Below, in pieces: positions 10,198-30,803 of a DNA stretch of 32,280 bases; the first letter of the stretch is position 1; each line of letters opens with the position of its first letter. A model generated the notes under the pieces. That model did no database searches, had not been told where the DNA came from, and saw only the letters and a program-made list of their open reading frames with translations. Source of the DNA: Phoronis australis (lineage: Eukaryota > Animalia > Phoronida); NCBI GenBank assembly GCA_002633005.1, contig NMRA01000286.1, forward strand, positions 1 to 32,280. The letters are read 5' to 3'. The position numbers and the translations under genes were made by a program.

Positions 10198-11609
10198 CGG
10201 GTGAGAAACAATATGACCACCCGTCCTCTAAACAGGACCTCCGGGGATCAAATGGGACCGCCGCACCAGAAAATGGGACTGACGCACCTAAAAACATGGA
10301 CCGCCCCACCACAAAACAGGACCGCCGGGGACTAAAACTGCAATGACTAACAGGCTAAGATTTATTACCGTTAGGCCTACACAGATCATACAATGGTGCT
10401 ATATACGTATGCATATGCAGGTCTTGTGCCGATTAATCCACCGAAATCTTTTGTGAGCAACAGACGACACTTCGCTTTGTAATACGCGGCGCTTTTGAGT
10501 TTTACTCATCACCATGTTACCAGCTGCGGTATGTAACTTATAAACAGTTGAAAGGTCAACAGTTAATAAATCTAACACAAAACAACCTCGTTGTACGATT
10601 TTGAGCTAAATAATTATGATTTTATCCAATGCGTAAGTTTTAGAACAAAATGAAAATCATTTTCTCCAATTTGATGTTTAAAGTTAGTCAAGTAAAAAAA
10701 CGGGCGTTGTCGGGTGAAGCATCATCGTACTAACTGCCTTTGTGTGGCAAAGCTGTATACTAAATATACAGCTTTGCTGTATACTAAATATACAGCTTTG
10801 TGCCGATGTGGGTAAAAAAACTGAACATGTAAAATCTTCTTCCGGCGAATTTGTGTTATTAACGACACTCTTCCTTGAGTAAATTAAATTATTTCATCGG
10901 CGCTCGAGAAAAATTGTTGTTCTGTCGTTATTCTGCGTTCTCTTAAGTTGGCTTACATTGGCCGGTTCCTTTCCCCCCGATTCTTCAGTCAACTGTTCTT
11001 CTACAAGGTTGCGTATCTGGCACAAAAAATTATCGAAACTGGTTTCATTTCGTTATAAGTTTTTAGTATTTTGATACCAGCAAACCGAATTTCATAACAA
11101 ATCTTGTTGCTGCCAAGTTGTCATCATCTTTCGAAAGATGTCGCAAAATTTTTCTGAGGAAATGGCGCGTGCACATGTCACGAGGGCGACAGACTTATTG
11201 TTACAACAGTTCATTAGATTGTTTTTCACTCGAGCGGTTGCAAACTGTAAGGTGAGTGTTGGTTGACGCCTAGATTTTGCATGCGCTTGCGTCGGTCGCG
11301 CGCTCTACTACATGTTGATGTAAGTTTCACGACAAGGTGACGAGCAGAACTACCTAGGCTGTGGGAAATTTCGGGGATGTAATGGAGCTCAATAACGCAA
11401 AGCTGTCAAGCTTTATTTTGGCGATAGTCTTTACACAGCTATATGACCGGTTACGTCATAGCCCGCAGTATCACACAAAGGCCTTAACTACTCAGTCCCC
11501 GGCAGTCCTGTTTTGTGGTGGGGCGGTCGTGTTTTTGGGTACGTCAGTCCTGGTTTGGGTGAGTCAGTCCGATTTGGAGGACCGGCGGTCATGTTGTTTC
11601 TCACCCATG
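10198..11609. mobile_element. Non-autonomous DNA transposon of about 1.4 kb with a 7-bp TSD (P-element-like or hAT-like)
   Basis: TIR GGGTGAGAAACAATATGACC / GGTCATGTTGTTTCTCACCC(ATG). ATGTTGA at 10191-10197 and 11610-11616. GGACCGCC-type subterminal repeats. The left terminus appears to lack 2 nt. Confidence 0.75.
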
Positions 11610-19120: not shown

Positions 19121-19692
19121 TCCGCATTTACATTAAACAGAAAACTGCCATGAGAAGCTAGACTTCCACGAAGGCACTGATGCCCAGTTTTGCCTTGAGT
19201 TGAAGCAGAAATCTTGATTGTCTTTGCCATGGTTTATGGCTAAAATTTTATGTGATAATTAACTTTTTATTTAATATAAATATATTTGCAACAAGTTATT
19301 GGAGATATATAGCTGAAAATGACTACTGATTACAATGCTCTGAAAACTGATTTGGAAATGAATTTTCATGTGAAAAACCATTTCTTGCTGACATTCAGAA
19401 ATAATCTAAAAGTTCCCAAAATGAAATTATAGCGCCTTAAAATATGTATCCTGACACGGGCAATTTAGTTACTCTGTGACAAATGCTTGTAATTTTTTTA
19501 ATTCGTCATTATTCATTAACTACTGTCTACATACAATCATTTTATAAGATGGCTGGAAGGATGTGAATGTGAGCCTGGATACGATGCATAAGTAATTGAT
19601 GTGAGTATGGTGCATTTAGACAAAGAGCACGCGATACATTTAGTTAAACAGTGATCTTTTTATGGCTCTTGATAAGTGTTATCTTGCCTTAG

Positions 19693-19982
19693 GTATTATT
19701 GCCGCACTGGATCAGATGCTCAACGGCCATCTGGTTCTGGCACTGGAGATGCTGGCCCATGTCCTGTTGGCTATTACTGCTCTCAAAAGACCCAGGATCC
19801 TGTTGCCTGCCAGGCTGGAACATTCAACAACCAAACAGGACTGACAACACTGGCCCAGTGCCAGGACTGCTTGCCGGGCTATGCCTGCGAGACCCCTGGA
19901 CTAGGCTCACCATCAGCTCCTTGTGATGCTGGGTACTACTGTAGTATGGGCTCCAATACAACACAGCCTGACAGTGGCACAG
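19693..19982 (+). pseudogene. Cys-rich exon J (open)
   Basis: Encodes YYCRTGSD...GPCPVGYYCSQKTQDPVACQAGTFNNQTG...CQDCLPGYACETPG...CDAGYYC. Bounded by AG and GT. Confidence 0.85.
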
Positions 19983-20129
19983 GTGATTCATTGATGCCTG
20001 TCTCTTGTAAACTAATTGTAGTTGAGCTGATCACGTGACATGAAAGAGGCTTGTGTCAACACAAGCAGCTTTCATCGTAGTGTGTGCAACCAGTGTAGTT
20101 CCGAAAGGATAATTAAGCTGTATTTTCAG

Positions 20130-20247
20130 GTGGTCCTTGCCCAGCTGGTTCCTACTGCCCCTTGGGCTCCAGTCAACCCAAGCTGTGTCCAGCTGGCTTC
20201 TACAGTAGAGACGACAAGTATTCCATCTGCGATGATTGTCCTGTGAG
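20130..20247 (+). pseudogene. Cys-rich exon K
   Basis: Acceptor ttttcag. Encodes GPCPAGSYCPLGSSQPKLCPAGFYSRDDKYSICDDCP. The 3' edge is uncertain. Confidence 0.75.
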
Positions 20248-20743
20248 GAAGGAAGCTCAAACATAACTGGATGTCCAAAAGGTGTGCAGGGGACTTTTGT
20301 TTATTGGGTTTTTTGTTCTTGGCTGGTCCTGCTTCCAAGAGGAGCTTGTAGATAATGAAGCAATGTTCAGTTCACTTCAGTTGTGAAAGCTTATTTTACT
20401 AGGTGCTGAATGCTGTGGTGTAGTAACATAATTACTAAAACCCAGTAGTCTGTTTATTGCAACCCTTAATCTTTTCCTATTGATATAGTATTTATCATTG
20501 ATCACCATGAATGTACCACGTCTTTGAACTATTGAACACCTCAAAATGGTCAGAGAATGACTGACGGAAATGTGCTAAAATGTAAATAGCATAGACCAAT
20601 AGATTTTAAAAATGTTCATAGTATGTGTTTTGTACAATTATGTCACTTTTTGTCTGTGGCATCATTTCAGAAGGAACTGCTACTTTTCACTATGAAATTC
20701 ATATTTCGGTACATACACTTACTTTAAACACTTGATGGAACTG

Positions 20744-20840
20744 TGCTCAACCGTCATCTTCAGTTGGTCTCCTACTGTCCTTAATGGTTTCGTCCCTAAA
20801 CCAAGACCATCTCTAGTAGGCGGGACAACAGAGTTGATCA
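20744..20840 (-). ncRNA. Candidate permuted hammerhead ribozyme with a kink-turn in the retrotransposon 3' UTR
   Basis: Minus strand: UGA UCAACUCUGUU GUCCC G CCUACU AGA GAUGGUC^UUGGUUU A GGGAC GAAACCAUU AAG GAC AGUAGG AGACCAA CUGAAGA U GACGGUUGA. CUGANGA, GAAA and GUC are all present, with correctly registered stems I, II and III. Confidence 0.7.
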
Positions 20841-23469
20841 GGCTCTGCCTGACGGTTGTTGATGGTATTGCTGTTGGTGCTTCATCCATATCCAACAAGA
20901 TGCCTGTTCAGCTTTGGTGGCCACGTCGCGTAGAAGAACCTTCTTTCCTGTCGCAGAGACGCCTAGAGACCTTGCCAGAGCAGTAACCGAGCTGGCCGGA
21001 AAACCACGGCAACCAACCTCCACAGAAAAACTCCAACACCTCCAGCCGTTAACGTGGCAGTCACTCCTCAGTTCAGTATATTTCAGGTTCTTCCGCTCAT
21101 GTGCCTCTTCTACCTTACTCCCCCACGGAATGGTGAGCTCGATCAGGATGATCTGATGGGAACTATCCGAATAAAGAATCAAGTCAGGGCGCTGTGTAGT
21201 CTGGACAATGTGCTGTGGGAAGGATGACTGGTGACCGGCAAGATCAACCCACAATTTCCAGTCGTTGGCTGTGTGAAGGATGCCTTTTTGCGCTGGTGTC
21301 TTCTTCTTACTTGCCTCATCGCCACTTCCTCTGAAACTGATAAATTCGATCCGGTGGCTTCTTGACTTTGGTTTACTCTTGACTTCGTCAACCAACACCC
21401 TTGCGAAAACTTTCAGTACCTGGTTGTGTCCTGATGCCAAAGACACGCTGCAATATGACAGAATGTGTTCTAAAGAACATCTGCGTCCACACTGAATACA
21501 GCTCGGGTTGTCAGTAAGACCCCAAATAGCAAGGCTGCTGGGAGTAGGCAGTACATCATAAACAGATCTGATGAGAAACTTTGCTTTCAAAGGCGACATC
21601 TTCCACAAGTCCGCCCACTTTATTTCCCTTTGCAAGACTTTGTCCCACTGCGTCCACGCCCCCTGCTGACCCATCTGAACTGCTCGGGCATACCTTCCTT
21701 CGTTCTCTGACAATCTAACTTCTCTGATTAATCTGTCTCTGTCTGGGTTTTTAAGTCTCTTCCTTGCTGGATTCCCGGTCTTGTAGCCCAGTCCTTGCCT
21801 ACCCTGGCAAGCACTTCCTATTAGTTGCTTGTGCCTCAGCCGGCTTTCTGCTTCGCTGATTGCCGACGTGGTGGACCACTTACTGCCGGTACGTGACTGG
21901 GTGATGCAACCACTGATAGCCTGGTCAGATGTATTCCGCAGAGTGATACTGGCTCGCACTTTGGTAACTTTACATTCCTCCACCACAGATGAGACCGGTA
22001 GAACGAGTTTCGATGACTTGCAGTACAGCCCGACGTTGCTGAATGATGCAGGTAGACCAAGCCACCTTCGAATGAACCGGCTCGCTGCTCTTTCCATTTC
22101 CTCAGCTGAAGACGACGTGACGTCGTAGATTAACAGTGGCCACATAAGTTTCGGGAGCAAGATGAACTGGTAGCACCAAAGCTTGAATCTTCCGGGTATG
22201 CCGTCTTTGTCGATCTTCTCAAGCCAAACCTTGAGCTGGGCTTTCACATCCTTGACACGGGATGTGTCTCGTAGGCTGCTATCATAGTACTTGCCAAGGC
22301 ACTTGACTGGTTGTTCACTTATTGTTGGAATTCTGCATCCTGCTATCGAAAACGTCTGTCTCTTGAGCAACACGCCTCTGTTGATAATTAGTGATCTGGA
22401 CTTCTCTGCCTTGAATGACATACGGGCCCATTTAGTGAGCTCTTCTAGGCAACGGAGAATTGTTCTGGCTCCCACTGGTGACTCTGTCACAATTGTAATG
22501 TCGTCAACAAAAGCTCTACATGACGGCTGTCTGACTTCATCTAGCTTGGGACCTCTTCGCTCAGATTGGGCTCTCTTCAGCAGGACATTCATTGCCATGA
22601 TAAACAGGATGACTGAAATGGTACAGCCCGTCATAATTCCTTTTTCAAGGTGTTGCCACTTCGTAGTGAAGTTGCCGACTGTGAAACGCATCACACAGGA
22701 GCTATAGTATGACTTCACTATATTCTTGACTTTCTCAGGAATGTGGTAGATGTCCATGGCACGATAAACTAATACATGTGGTACCGAACCGTACGCATTT
22801 GCCATGTCGAGCCACACCATAGACAGATTCTTCTTGCCCTTCTTCGCTCGGTGTATGAGTTCACTTATGATAGAATTATGTTCCAGGCATCCAGAAAAGC
22901 CTGGTACCCCGCCTTTCTGTGAAGATGTGTCAATATACTTGTTCTTGATCATGAAGTCTGTCATTCTGCCGGATAGGATTGCTAAGTAGATCTTTCCTTC
23001 CACGCTGAGCAGTGAAATTGGTCAAAACTGGCTAATCTGCTTCGAGCCTTCTTTTTTCGGAACATAAACTCCTTCAGCTCGCCCCCACTGGGTTGGAACT
23101 ACGCCCTTCCTCCAGAGGATCTTAAACTGCTTCCAGAGCCTTTCTCTCAACTTGGGACACATCTTATAGACCTTGTAGGAAATTCTACTTGGAGCAGGGG
23201 CTGACCCCGATCGGGCTTTCTTCACAGTGCTATCCACTTCTGACTTCTTTATGTCCCCCAGATCAAAACCTTTGTCTGGTAGATCTTCAGCCTCTAGACC
23301 TGGAAAGTCGCCAAGGGGAGTATCTTTCAACTCATCGCTGTGAATTTTGGCAAGGTGATCCTCCAAGTCTGCCCGGTTGCAGGTAAGTGTTCTGCTTTTG
23401 CTCTTGCCTAAAAGCCTTGAAGCATACTGATAGGGGTTCCTAATGAATTCCTCTCTCTGCCTTGACCGT
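20838..23469 (-). pseudogene. RT-RLE ORF, 3' assembled copy (in-frame stop at 23022-23024)
   Basis: The 721-aa ORF 20838-23003 continues upstream in frame through a TGA. The duplicate copy has CGA at that codon. Confidence 0.85.
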
Positions 23470-23470
23470 N

Positions 23471-25923
23471 CTGTCTGGGTTTTTAAGTCTCTTCCTTGCT
23501 GGATTCCCGGTCTTGTAGCCCAGTCCTTGCCTACCCTGGCAAGCACTTCCTATTAGTTGCTTGTGCCTCAGCCGGCTTTCTGCTTCGCTGATTGCTGACG
23601 TGGTGGACCACTTACTGCCAGTACGTGACTGGGTGATGCAACCACTGATAGCCTGGTCAGATGTATTCTGCAGAGTGATACTGGCTCGCACTTTGGTAAC
23701 TTTATATTCCTCCACCACAGATGAGACCGGAAGAACGAGTTTCGATGACTTGCAGTACAGCCCGACGTTGCTGAATGATGCAGGTAGACCAAGCCACCTT
23801 CGAATGAACTGGCTCGCTGCTCTTTCCATTTCCTTAGCTGAAGACGACGTGACGTCGTAGATTAACAGTGGCCACATAAGCTTCGGGAGCAAGATGAACT
23901 GGTAGCACCAATGCTTGAATCTTCCGGGTATGCCGTCTTTGTCGATCTTCTCAAGCCAAACCTTGAGCTGGGCTTTCACATCCTTGACACGGGATGTGTC
24001 TCGTAGGCTGCTATCATAGTACTTGCCAAGGCACTTGACTGGTTGTTCACTTATTGTTGGAATTCTGCAATCTGCTATCGAAAACGTATGTCTCTTGAGC
24101 AAAACGCCTCTGTTGATAATTAGTGATCTGGACTTCTCTGCCTTGAATGACATACGGGCCCATTTAGTGAGCTCTTCTAGGCAATGGAGAATTGTTCTGG
24201 CTCCCACTGGTGACTCTGTCACAATTGTAATGTCGTCAACAAAAGCTCTACATGACGGCTGTCTGACTTCATCTAGCTTGGGACCTCTTCGCTCAGATTG
24301 GGCTCTCTTCAGCAGGACATTCATTGCCATGATAAACAGGATGACTGAAATGGTACAGCCCGTCATAATTCCTTTTTCAAGGTGTTGCCACTTCGTAGTG
24401 AAGTTGCCGACTGTGAAACGCATCACACAGGAGCTATAGTATGACTTCACTATACTCTTGACTTTCTCAGGAATGTGGTAGATGTCCATGGCACGATAAA
24501 CTAATACATGTGGTACCGAACCGTACGCATTTGCCATGTCGAGCCACACCATAGACAGATTCTTCTTGCCCTTCTTCGCTCGGTGTATGAGTTCACTTAT
24601 GATAGAATTATGTTCCAGGCATCCAGAAAAGCCTGGTACCCCGCCTTTCTGTGAAGATGTGTCAATATACTTGTTCTTGATCATGAAGTCTGTCATTCTG
24701 CCGGATAGGATTGCTAAGTAGATCTTTCCTTCCACGCTAAGCAGTGAAATTGGTCGAAACTGGCTAATCTGCTTCGAGCCTTCTTCTTTCGGAACATAAA
24801 CTCCTTCAGCTCGCCCCCACTGGGCTGGAACTACGCCCTTCCTCCAGAGAATCTTAAACAGCTTCCAGAGCCTTTCTCTCAACTTGGGACACATCTTATA
24901 GACCTTGTAGGAAATTCTACTTGGACCAGGGGCTGACCCCGATCGGGCTTTCTTCACAATGCTATCCACTTCTGACTTCTTAATGTCCCCCAGATCAAAA
25001 CCTTCGTCCGGTAGATCTTCAGCCTCTAGATCTGGGAAGTCGCCAAGGGGAGTATCTTTCAACTCATCACTGTGAATTTTGGCAAGGTGATCCTCCAAGT
25101 CTGCCCGGGTGCAGGTAAGTGTTCCGCTTTTGCTCTTGCCTAAAAGCCTTGAAGCATACTGGTAGGGGTTCCTAATGAATTTCTCTCTCTGCCTTGACCG
25201 TTTCTTCCTATTTTGTGCACCTCGTTCTGCTTTGCGGAGGGGCAATAGTCGCTTGGGGGCCTCAGATGTCAGGTGAGTTATTCCTGCTTTTTCGTGCTCA
25301 GCTGCACTCTTCCACAGGCGACGGAGTTCTCTAAGCTCTCTGCGGATAGTCACTATTTCCCGTTGTCGTCTGTTTGGTCCTCGTGGGTTTCATGTTTCCT
25401 TTCTTTTCTCTACTGTTCCAAAGCGGTCCACACTGACTTGGTAAACAATCCTAGTCATAGCCTCAATCTTTGTCTCTGCTGGACCTCGAAGAGTGACACG
25501 TAAGATGCTATCCAGATCATTGTCTAAGGCTGACCACGCCTTCTTATCAGCTGCTGATGGCCACTTGATTCGATCCTTCTTTGCAGTATCTGGTGGACCT
25601 GCTGAACTGGCTGGAACTGGATTCTGAAATACTTCAGCTTCTACTACTAATGCTTTCATCTGATGCGTAGCTGGGAGGTCTTCTGCACTGTGGTTTGAGA
25701 CCTGGCTCAATCCCTTCCCCGTCTCGCTGGACGTGGCGCCCAAGCGTTGCCTTGCGACCTGACGTAAGCACTTCATCTTTCCTTGGTGGATCTTCAACCC
25801 TCTTAAATTCTTCAGAATCTTTCCACACACACAGGTTCTTGATGCTAAATCGGTGTTCGTAATCGTAGTCCTATTTGGTCCGGTTGTTGCCGTTTGAGGT
25901 CTGTCGTTGGACTCTTCTTGCAT
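23471..25923 (-). pseudogene. Zinc finger-RT ORF, 5' assembled copy (in-frame stop at 25390-25392)
   Basis: ORFs 25390-25923 and 23440-25353 are in the same frame, separated by one TGA (...KET*NPRGPNRRQREIV...). The copy breaks at the single N at 23470. Confidence 0.85.
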
Positions 25924-26165
25924 CCTCCCTCTCGGAGAGTCCTGAGGTTGTCTTTCTGGTAATTTGGACGTAGCAATATGTATGTATGGTAGATTCGATC
26001 TTATTTGCTTTTGATCTTAAATCATCATCAGTGAGCACCACAAAACATCATCTAAACATGAAACACGCAGTATATTTCATGTTCAAATGTATGGTTGGAT
26101 TTAGTGCCCAATCATGTAGTTGTTTGTTCTTGATTCTGTAGTGTCAAAGTTGTTTATTGGTGCAG

Positions 26166-29072: not shown

Positions 29073-29249
29073 GTATGNTCCGTCCGTCCGTCCGTCCGTC
29101 CGTCCGTCCGTCCGGGCGGCGTCCGTCCGGCGTCCGGCGTCTGGCGTCCGGCGTCCGCTGCTCTATCTGCAAAACCCTTTGACATACGTTCATGAAATTA
29201 GGCACATATGTTCCATTCATGAATGGGACGGCATGTGCGAACTTTCGGA

Positions 29250-30420
29250 CGGATCCGACTACCGGTGTGCCCCCTAGTGGCACTTTTAGTTTTTTACGCT
29301 TACCTTTGTATCTTCAAAAGTCTTGAACGGATTTTCATGAAATTTGGTATGTAGGCACCTAGTAGTGAGATGACGCTATCCTGCCGTTTTCGGATGGATT
29401 CGACATAGTTTGCGCCACTTAGTGGCCATTTTTAGTGTTTTCGATTCTGTTTTTCTGCTTCCACCCCTCTATCAACCAAACCGCTCAAAGGATGATTGTG
29501 AAAATTGGCATGTATGTGCTTACTATGTAGAGGACGGTTGACGATGATTTTCCGACGATTTCGACTACTGTGGCGCCTCCTAATGGCTGTATCTCCTAAA
29601 CCGTTCGCAGGATCTTTACGAAATTGTGTAAGTATATTTATATGATGTTAACAACGGAAGATGACGACTTTTGGTCGGATCCGACTACCGGTGTGCCCCC
29701 TAGTGGCAATTTATATTTTTTTTACGCTTACCTTTGTATGTTCACAAGTCCTTATTGGATTTTCATGAAATTTGGTATGTAGGCACCTATTAGTGAGATG
29801 ACGCTATTTTGCCGTTTTCAGATGGATTCGACATAGTTTGCGCCACCTAGTGGCCATTTNCTAGTGGCCATTTTTAGTGTTTTCGAGTCTGTTTTTGTGC
29901 GTCCACCCCTCTATCAACCAAACTGCTCAAAGGATGGTTTTGAAAATTGGCATGTATATGCTTACTATGTAGAGGACGGTTGACGATGATTTTCCGACGA
30001 TTTCGTCTACTGTGGCGCCTCCTAGTGGCAGTTTTGTTTTTTTGCGCCTATGGCTGTATCTCCTAAACCTTTCACAGGATCTTTACGAAATTGTGTAAGT
30101 ATATTTATATGATGTTAACAACGGAAGATGACAACTTTTTGACGGATCTGACTACCGGTGTGCCCCCTAGTGGCAATTTTAGTTTTTTACGCTTACCTTT
30201 GTATCTTCAAAAGTCCTGAACGGATTTTCGTGAAATTTGGTATGTAGGCACCTATTAGTGAGATGACGCTATCCTCACGTTTTCAGACGGATTTGACATA
30301 GTTTGCGCCACCTAGTGGCCATTTTTACTGTTTTCGAGTCTGTATTTTGCGTCCACCCCTCTATCAACCAAACCGCTCAAAGGATGATTGTGAAAATTGC
30401 CGTGTATGTGCTTACTATAA
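29250..30420. repeat. Tandem array with a unit of about 430-470 bp built from about 145-bp subunits
   Basis: CGGATC(C/T)GACTACCGGTGTGCCCCCTAGTGGCA occurs at about 29250, 29677 and 30143. CTAGTGGC-like motifs recur roughly every 145-160 bp. Confidence 0.85.
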
Positions 30421-30438
30421 GGAAGACAGCTGACAATA

Positions 30439-30803
30439 CGCCTAAGCGCTACGTCGGGCGTGCCTGCGCCGCCTTCGGCAGCTTGGCTGGGGCCCGCCTA
30501 ACTGCTACGTCGGGCGTGCCTGCGCCGCCTTCGGCAGCTTGGCTGGGGCCCGCCTAAGTGCTACGTCGGGCGTGCCTGCGCCGCCCTCGACAGCTTGGCT
30601 GGGGCCCGCCTAATTGCTACTTCGGGCGTTCCTGCGCCGCCTTCGGAGCTTGGCTGGGGCCCGCCTAAGTGCTACGTCGGGCGTGCCTACGCCGCCTTCG
30701 GCAGCTTGGCTGGGGCTTGCCTAAGCAGTGCTACGTCGGGCGTGCCTGCGCTGTCTTCGGCAGCATGCCATCGGCTGGGGCGGCCCGCCTAAGTGTTACG
30801 TCG
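30439..30803. repeat. GC-rich 56-bp minisatellite, about 6.3 copies
   Basis: Unit CGCCTAAGTGCTACGTCGGGCGTGCCTGCGCCGCCTTCGGCAGCTTGGCTGGGGCC starts at 30439, 30495, 30551, 30607, 30662, about 30718 and 30786. Confidence 0.92.

Follow-up and report, generated by a model that had tools for sequence, protein, structure and literature searches.

A conserved hammerhead-type RNA fold with a permuted strand order at the 3' end of HERO-like LINEs

Results

The element and its open reading frame

The window analysed here is a 32,280-nucleotide stretch of Phoronis australis DNA (contig NMRA01000286.1), whose minus strand carries a HERO-like element (Table 1). In the single ORF of the element, a reverse transcriptase (RT) is followed by a zinc knuckle and then by a restriction-like endonuclease, with no APE domain, as in the restriction-like endonuclease (RLE) group of non-LTR retrotransposons. 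The ORF matches Pfam RVT_1 at E 2e-20 and, weakly, zf-RVT at E 0.00045; the best PDB matches of its protein are R2 proteins. It also contains an RPD..ELT.PW..K motif, which we take to be that of the restriction-like endonuclease. The 130 database relatives of the protein include named ones from fish, lancelet, molluscs and ctenophores. Protein P0001 (aa 58-1232) maps to 25980-20844, and the N-terminal reading frame and the RT frame are broken near 25390 in this copy. A direct duplication of 1731 bp lies inside the element (21739-23469 and 23471-25201, 98% identical, with a single N at 23470), and possibly reflects two copies joined in assembly instead of a true duplication.

We infer that the clade is likely HERO, because copies in same-species reads and contigs are dispersed and HERO elements are described, in the accessible literature, as largely non-specific in insertion. 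Presumably the host range argues for the same assignment. A second HERO-like element, of another family, occupies positions 1-2345 of the same strand, with its 3' end beyond the window; it shows about 69% DNA identity in RT patches and 49% protein identity to P0001. Imperfect repeat arrays are found at 29240-30803, with units of about 56 nt at 30439-30803 and longer duplications at 29240-30437.

Table 1. Features of the element and of the motif at its 3' end (window coordinates; L numbers denote related loci)
Feature	Position	Strand	Basis or remark
Whole HERO-like element	20717..26016	(-)	5' end approximate
C-terminal 727-codon open part of the single ORF	20838..23021	(-)	RT, CCHC-type zinc knuckle region, restriction-like endonuclease
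P0, 5' strand CAACCGUCA	20858-20850	(-)	in last ORF codons; true closing helix
Hairpin H GGCAGAG/CUCUGUU	20849-20843/20833-20827 (20827..20849)	(-)	stop codon in loop; adjoins P0 and G10.1
ORF stop codon	20840-20838	(-)	sequence
Stem II, 5' strand	20822..20826	(-)	begins at G10.1 (20826)
Helix X, 5' strand	20815..20820	(-)	counterpart of SGC 'I' helix
Predicted kink-turn GA, non-bulged strand	20812..20813	(-)	consensus match
Stem III, 5' strand, and C17	20805..20811	(-)	predicted cut 20805/20804
Stem I, 5' strand, and one-A link to stem II	20797..20804	(-)	sequence
Stem II, 3' strand; GAAA (G12-A15.1); stem III, 3' strand	20783..20796	(-)	sequence
Bulged strand of predicted kink-turn (AAG as 3-nt bulge, followed by GA and C)	20777..20782	(-)	consensus match
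Helix X, 3' strand	20771..20776	(-)	covariation
Stem I, 3' strand, and core CUGAAGA (C3-A9)	20757..20770	(-)	sequence, conservation
P0, 3' strand UGACGGUUG	20756-20748	(-)	begins directly after A9
Terminal hairpin GCAC 20746-43/GUGU 20731-28 and element 3' end near 20717	20717..20746	(-)	only 4 bp here
Loci with GUGAC..GGAAAGAC repeats past the core	L002, L007-L012, L016, L017, L021, L031, L036, L044, L051		downstream of core

The predicted fold

Comparative sequence evidence shows that the RNA of this LINE ends in a conserved fold of hammerhead type, in the strand order P0-H-II-X-III-site-I-II-GAAA-III-X-I-CUGANGA-P0. The first-pass annotation had recognised its centre correctly: the core CUGAAGA (20763-20757), GAAA (20791-20788) and GUC (20807-20805) lie where it placed them, as do stem I (7 bp, one G-U), stem II (5 bp, with the G10.1-C11.1 pair), stem III (6 bp, one G-U), an extra helix of 6 bp, here named X, and the single A that links stem I to stem II. 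Its proposal of a non-classical strand order, opened between A9 and G10.1, also stands, since this order is kept and covaries across divergent relatives. It rightly located the stop codon, from which it had the motif start, but the motif begins 18 nt inside the ORF. The closing helix it proposed, UCAA..CUGUU with GACGGUUGA, had to be given up: in a fold extended to 20860, CUGUU/GACGG pairs at a probability of 0.0, and the helix is replaced by P0, whose 9 bp have pair probabilities of 0.76-1.0. In the same fold stem II is also highly probable, and six of the seven pairs of hairpin H reach 0.74-0.92, with 0.27 for the junction pair.

P0 follows A9 directly, its partner strand adjoins H, and H adjoins G10.1; the link between A9 and G10.1 is thus replaced by a gap-free four-way junction (core/P0/H/II). 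This junction, hairpin H and the kink-turn described below are absent from the earlier description. Cleavage is predicted between 20805 and 20804, after GUC. The GCA..UGU terminal hairpin is present in many relatives and is a possible RT recognition element. When the interval 20744-20840 is folded as a single sequence, it does no better than shuffles (z = -0.02). Such an unremarkable single-sequence fold is to be expected of a doubly pseudoknotted motif, and support for it is therefore comparative.

Covariation, catalytic positions and the kink-turn

Forty-six non-redundant sequences were chosen by hand from 66 parsed ones, with near-duplicates and broken or truncated copies dropped, and aligned with MAFFT without structure (mean identity 49%, maximum 87.5%). 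All 7021 column pairs were scored by a G-test with background correction against our own tree-based null, modelled on R-scape. The 20 top-scoring pairs are without exception predicted pairs and cover all six helices. Thirteen pairs have E<0.05 (three in stem I, three in II, one in III, two in X, three in P0 and one in H); those with E<0.01 comprise three in stem II, two in helix X and three core-proximal ones in stem I. Misalignment by the variable linker leaves the four distal pairs of stem I unsupported in this alignment, and the count of 36 pairs excludes them. Over these 36, 88.5% of cells are paired, compared with 33-43% when partners are slid by 1-3 columns, and 34 of the pairs show changes on both sides, with double changes in all nine pairs of P0, all seven of H and all six of X. 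Stems I, II and III adjoin the core with covariation support, stem I being tested for its three core-proximal pairs only, and the helix joining distal stems I and II is the covarying helix X. The four-way junction is gap-free in 38 of the 46 sequences. Covariation of the helices had been put forward in the first-pass annotation as a check on the model, and under this null it is found in all six.

The hammerhead core is found complete, with C3 U4 G5 A6 N7 G8 A9, G12 A13 A14 A15.1, U16.1 and H17. C3, U4, G5, A6, G8, A9, A13, A14 and A15.1 are present in 46/46 sequences and G12 in 45/46, and N7 takes all four bases. In the 66 parses, which placed no constraint on base 17, this position is U in 24, C in 23, A in 19 and G in none; on the protein tree it changes at least 18 times, never to G. 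Invariant core letters, a free N7 and an excluded G17 together make up the hammerhead rule set.

A kink-turn consists of a 3-nt bulge followed by tandem G-A/A-G pairs between two helices. Such a bulge with tandem GA lies between stem III and helix X in 31 of the 46 sequences and is absent in 15, whereas shuffles give it in 0.76 sequences on average and in 4 at most; other bulge sizes occur in 1-9 of the 46. We predict from this consensus that a kink-turn joins stem III to helix X.

Occurrence among relatives

Alignment of the C-terminal region yielded 84 related loci, namely 80 metagenome loci (the best 80 of 324) and four in prokaryote genome bins. A strict descriptor matches the sense strand of 48 of the 84 and the antisense strand of none; it has no match in 1480 dinucleotide shuffles of downstream regions, nor in the window when shuffled 20 times. 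Its second match in the window, with a core at 10988, has no support from the covariance model, which matches once within the window. Full-length matches to this model occur in 64 of the 84 loci, although 45 matched loci built the model and so match by construction. Eight further loci have the motif cut off by the contig end, two of these matches being weak (E 0.015 and 0.043), and one being an upstream copy. As the first-pass annotation had expected, the Rfam hammerhead models overlook the motif, with no match at E<=10 in 19500-22000 and none at the gathering score in eight loci.

Most of the 12 loci not matched by the covariance model are short: seven have less than 150 nt downstream, and two end too early, their kin families carrying the motif 660-760 nt downstream. 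L074 carries the motif when read by hand (L074:1790-1930), in a variant where a 10-bp hairpin has been added between helix X and stem III and replaces the kink-turn, and where the site reads AUA. No motif was found in the 334 nt downstream of L029. The most divergent relative (L083:1140-1260, 32% identity) has GUU, GAAA and CUGAUGA in the order S-G-C about 400 nt past the ORF, followed by a (TAG)n run; its 3-bp stem II may directly follow A9, which would make it an uninterrupted type SGC hammerhead, in a single sequence with an ambiguous parse. A quick protein tree served only to place the loci that have no motif.

In most parses the predicted site lies 32-73 nt after the stop codon, and P0 and H overlap the stop in about half of them; in L023 and L026 the stop is followed by the motif only after 600-700 nt. 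The sequences place the motif, as far as the present sample goes, throughout a widespread family of animal retrotransposons, with a median of 46% protein identity across families. HERO-like elements in prokaryote genome bins (L084/L085 on contig C16 of G001, and L081-L083) are likely contamination from eukaryotic hosts, the 12 kb around L084 having 37% GC. No relative of the ORF protein was found in viral contigs. Scans of viral sequences for the core pattern, with two variants of stem II, gave 36 loci, none with the site block; the one that matched the model, at 30 bits after preselection by pattern (L091), is a phage-like coding sequence.

Copy ends, tandems and RNA reads

Same-species reads and contigs place the 3' end of the element at 20717, 88 nt past the predicted cut, next to many different flanks. 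The sequence after 20717 is heterogeneous in the species (agreement 0.44-0.62) and is not one tandem junction. Loose-end consensus strings from all six read sets start with the same three letters after the element end, which suggests either that the window copy stops a few bases short of most others or that copies share a target preference. Family pairs have just 14-17 nt in common beyond the terminal CUGU before diverging, and by these comparisons this is where copies end (ungapped comparison).

Genomic copies keep both halves of the motif (64 full-length) and have no poly(A), a run of A8 following the copy end in 1 of 58. The 5' UTR repeat of a next copy lies 45-130 nt after the core in 14 of the 58 copies, and an N-terminal ORF follows the motif in 15 loci. 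Intact halves, missing poly(A) and head-to-tail copies suggest a nicked or circular template. The window copy has no upstream tail at its 5' end. The 5' UTR starts with imperfect repeats of about 20 nt (GUGAC..GGAAAGAC) that are common to several families and are possibly protein-binding or targeting sites. On one contig, L016 is followed head-to-tail by L005, of a family only 70% identical; this is the only tandem with both 3' ends, and a hint that the 5' start of one copy may serve as an insertion site for another. L052, a candidate for a second mixed tandem, is an old copy with internal deletion and is ambiguous. An 11-nt deletion in L056 falls between 7-nt repeats which, in the related L012, stand on either side of the site; it is a single event that simple slippage would explain as well as an event at the cut site.

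The depth of raw RNA reads of the same species does not fall at 20805, and read ends do not accumulate there; these libraries appear to be unstranded, their reads derive mostly from diverged copies, and cleavage is compatible with this absence of ends. Among the ends of DNA contigs and read groups listed, no loose end lies at the cut site; the contig ends near it (L013 ends at GUC, and one X1 contig starts at 20805) are compatible with chance.

Discussion

We describe here a hammerhead-type motif that, in view of its catalytic letters, very probably cleaves itself. A ribozyme of this form would contradict the assumption, made in print, that stem II and the CUGANGA block are inseparable. Non-circularly permuted ribozymes, known from anonymous contigs of metatranscriptomes, would then also populate animal genomes at high copy number, unnoticed by standard descriptors and by Rfam. 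Cutting within the very template that a LINE has to copy poses a paradox, whose solution bears on how RLE elements define their ends and form tandem arrays. RLE elements are under development for gene insertion. With about 130 nt, the RNA can be tested directly at the bench.

In the fold, the four-way junction would allow two stacks, one of stem II on the A9-G12 pair and the other of P0 on H, and the kink-turn would fold helix X back, clamping stems I and II. We favour, stopping a little short of calling it probable, the idea that the ribozyme cuts head-to-tail read-through RNA into units with paired ends, which are copied as a nicked or re-ligated circle. Read-through transcripts of tandems would be cut after GUC into unit-length RNAs, and the cut products would stay joined by the 26 bp of P0, II, X and III. 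A unit from two successive cuts would carry the terminal hairpin near its 5' end, with the ORF behind it. Since RT starting at this hairpin would begin so close to the 5' end of the cut unit, it would have to cross the cut, by re-ligation or a template jump, for a complete copy; running on past one unit, it would give tandems. Covariation, the catalytic signature, copies with both halves, tandems, the cleavage of SGC ribozymes, the L056 deletion, though a single event, and the precedent of Penelope-like elements and retrozymes all speak for this account. On the other side stand the L016/L005 tandem, whose partners are 70% identical and cannot come from a single circle, the possibility that tandems in short-read metagenome contigs are assembly collapses, the heterogeneous flanks, a window copy with no tail at its 5' end, the finding that PAc needs no cleavage to insert in vitro, and the RNA and DNA data, with no ends at the site. 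The broader claim, that an entire LINE clade uses an active hammerhead of new topology to cut and re-close its own RNA, with internal initiation on a circle in place of a polyadenylated linear template, is one we put forward only tentatively.

A rather unlikely alternative that still deserves attention is that the active ribozyme processes the 5' end of the next copy, with elements inserting at the 5' start of another copy or next to it. A cut by the upstream tail, about 100 nt before the next element, would then give that element a defined, uncapped, structured 5' end, as the HDV-like ribozyme of R2 does, perhaps for cap-independent translation, while uncut RNA, guarded by a ribosome or by bound RT, would be the template. 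This would account for a tandem of two families with 70% identity and for the fixed short spacing to the next 5' UTR, and translation could melt P0 and H in the parses where these overlap the stop. The Penelope-like element PAc, as far as the accessible account goes, uses uncut RNA as its substrate, and self-cleavage alone can drive cap-independent translation (PMC13725137). However, a downstream copy would lose its tail to its own ribozyme unless this were switched off, the distance from stop to motif in L023 and L026 does not suit this role, and 44 of the 58 copies have no copy following them.

It is improbable, in our view, that the active ribozyme serves as an attenuator, in which a cut between the stop and the 3' tail destroys untranslated or read-through transcripts and so limits the element. 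The short distance from stop to site in most parses and the hammerhead proposed for the Clec2 3' UTR, as seen in the accessible text, would suit such a role, which accounts for selection on catalysis and for intact copies without circles. Yet it leaves the tandems and the missing poly(A) unexplained, destruction has no need of 26 bp that hold the products together, and near-universal retention at a median protein identity of 46% is much for a self-limiting trait.

Distinctly improbable, too, is a hammerhead-derived scaffold, catalytically silent or negligible, kept as a binding platform for RT. RNA reads without ends at the site agree with it; structures in the R2 3' UTR bind RT, and the core, which other insertions are reported to have impaired, could suffer from the insertion of two helices at A9|G10.1. 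Against this, only the catalytic positions are invariant, N7 varies freely and G17 never occurs, just as selection for cleavage would have it. Chance resemblance or an alignment artefact has next to no probability: although the single-sequence fold is unremarkable and a loose descriptor can match by chance, as at 10988 in the window and in the phage coding sequence of L091, structure-blind covariation in all six helices, strand-specific occurrence and the null results in shuffles speak against it.

Comparison with known systems

Hammerheads of types I, II and III have the circular order C-G-S around a three-way junction, while the motif described here has the order S-G-C. Its closest counterparts are the type SGC hammerheads (HRIMA-1 and variants; Eckert et al. 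2023, PMC10085705), which, by the accessible text of that paper, cleave in vitro and need all four helices, come from metatranscriptomes, and occur in no known genome apart from one GCS candidate. In that text, block C (the stem I strand, CUGAnGA and the stem II strand) is assumed to be uninterrupted. Both have the order site, GAAA, CUGANGA, a short linker between I and II, a further helix that connects the remaining strands of these two stems, two pseudoknots and the same core letters. In contrast to type SGC as described there, the motif has its stem II and X strands upstream, P0 after A9, a four-way junction with P0 and H at A9|G10.1, and a kink-turn consensus joining III and X; the last would give a concrete answer to the question raised in the SGC paper of how distal stem III connects to the I-II helix. 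Judged from sequence and against that published part, the motif is a circular permutation of the known non-circular SGC connectivity, opened inside block C, and, though wired like SGC, falls outside the type by its interrupted block C. The first-pass annotation knew of no description of the fold. The S-G-C wiring was in fact published in 2023 (PMC10085705, accessible text), but the opened form was not found in the open full-text literature, and in the same literature no hammerhead was found in HERO or other RLE LINEs.

The earlier view that ribozymes of non-LTR elements are HDV-like and 5' located proved too narrow, as hammerheads are known, from the accessible literature, in Penelope-like elements, schistosome SINE-like elements and retrozymes. 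The type I hammerheads of Penelope-like elements and non-LTR retrozymes (PMC6765202, PMC11167929, bioRxiv 2026.07.22.740005) resemble the motif in placing the same core in a tandem retroelement. For these, the accessible parts of the reports propose the processing of multimers and circles, show internal RT initiation for PAc, and find cleavage dispensable for PAc insertion in vitro. As described there, their folds are classical, often minimal type I, and lie in the pseudo-LTRs of GIY-YIG elements or in non-coding repeats, whereas the motif is non-circularly permuted and belongs to a LINE with RT and a restriction-like endonuclease.

The HDV-like 5' ribozymes of R2, L1Tc, RTE and other LINEs (PMC6765202, PMC13708176, accessible text) likewise bring a self-cleaving class into an autonomous non-LTR element, and in tandems the motif sits just upstream of the next 5' UTR. 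Unlike them, it is of another ribozyme class and lies at the 3' end, with its predicted cut inside the element rather than at the 5' boundary. The discontinuous hammerhead of the Clec2 3' UTR (PMC6765202) has its site between stop codon and 3' end, as predicted here, but by the accessible description it belongs to a host gene and combines classical order with a long insertion, with neither a pseudoknotted permutation nor a four-way junction. Set beside these systems, the motif is a real new form of a ribozyme class that was already known, occurs where that class had not been found in the genome, and is likely active.
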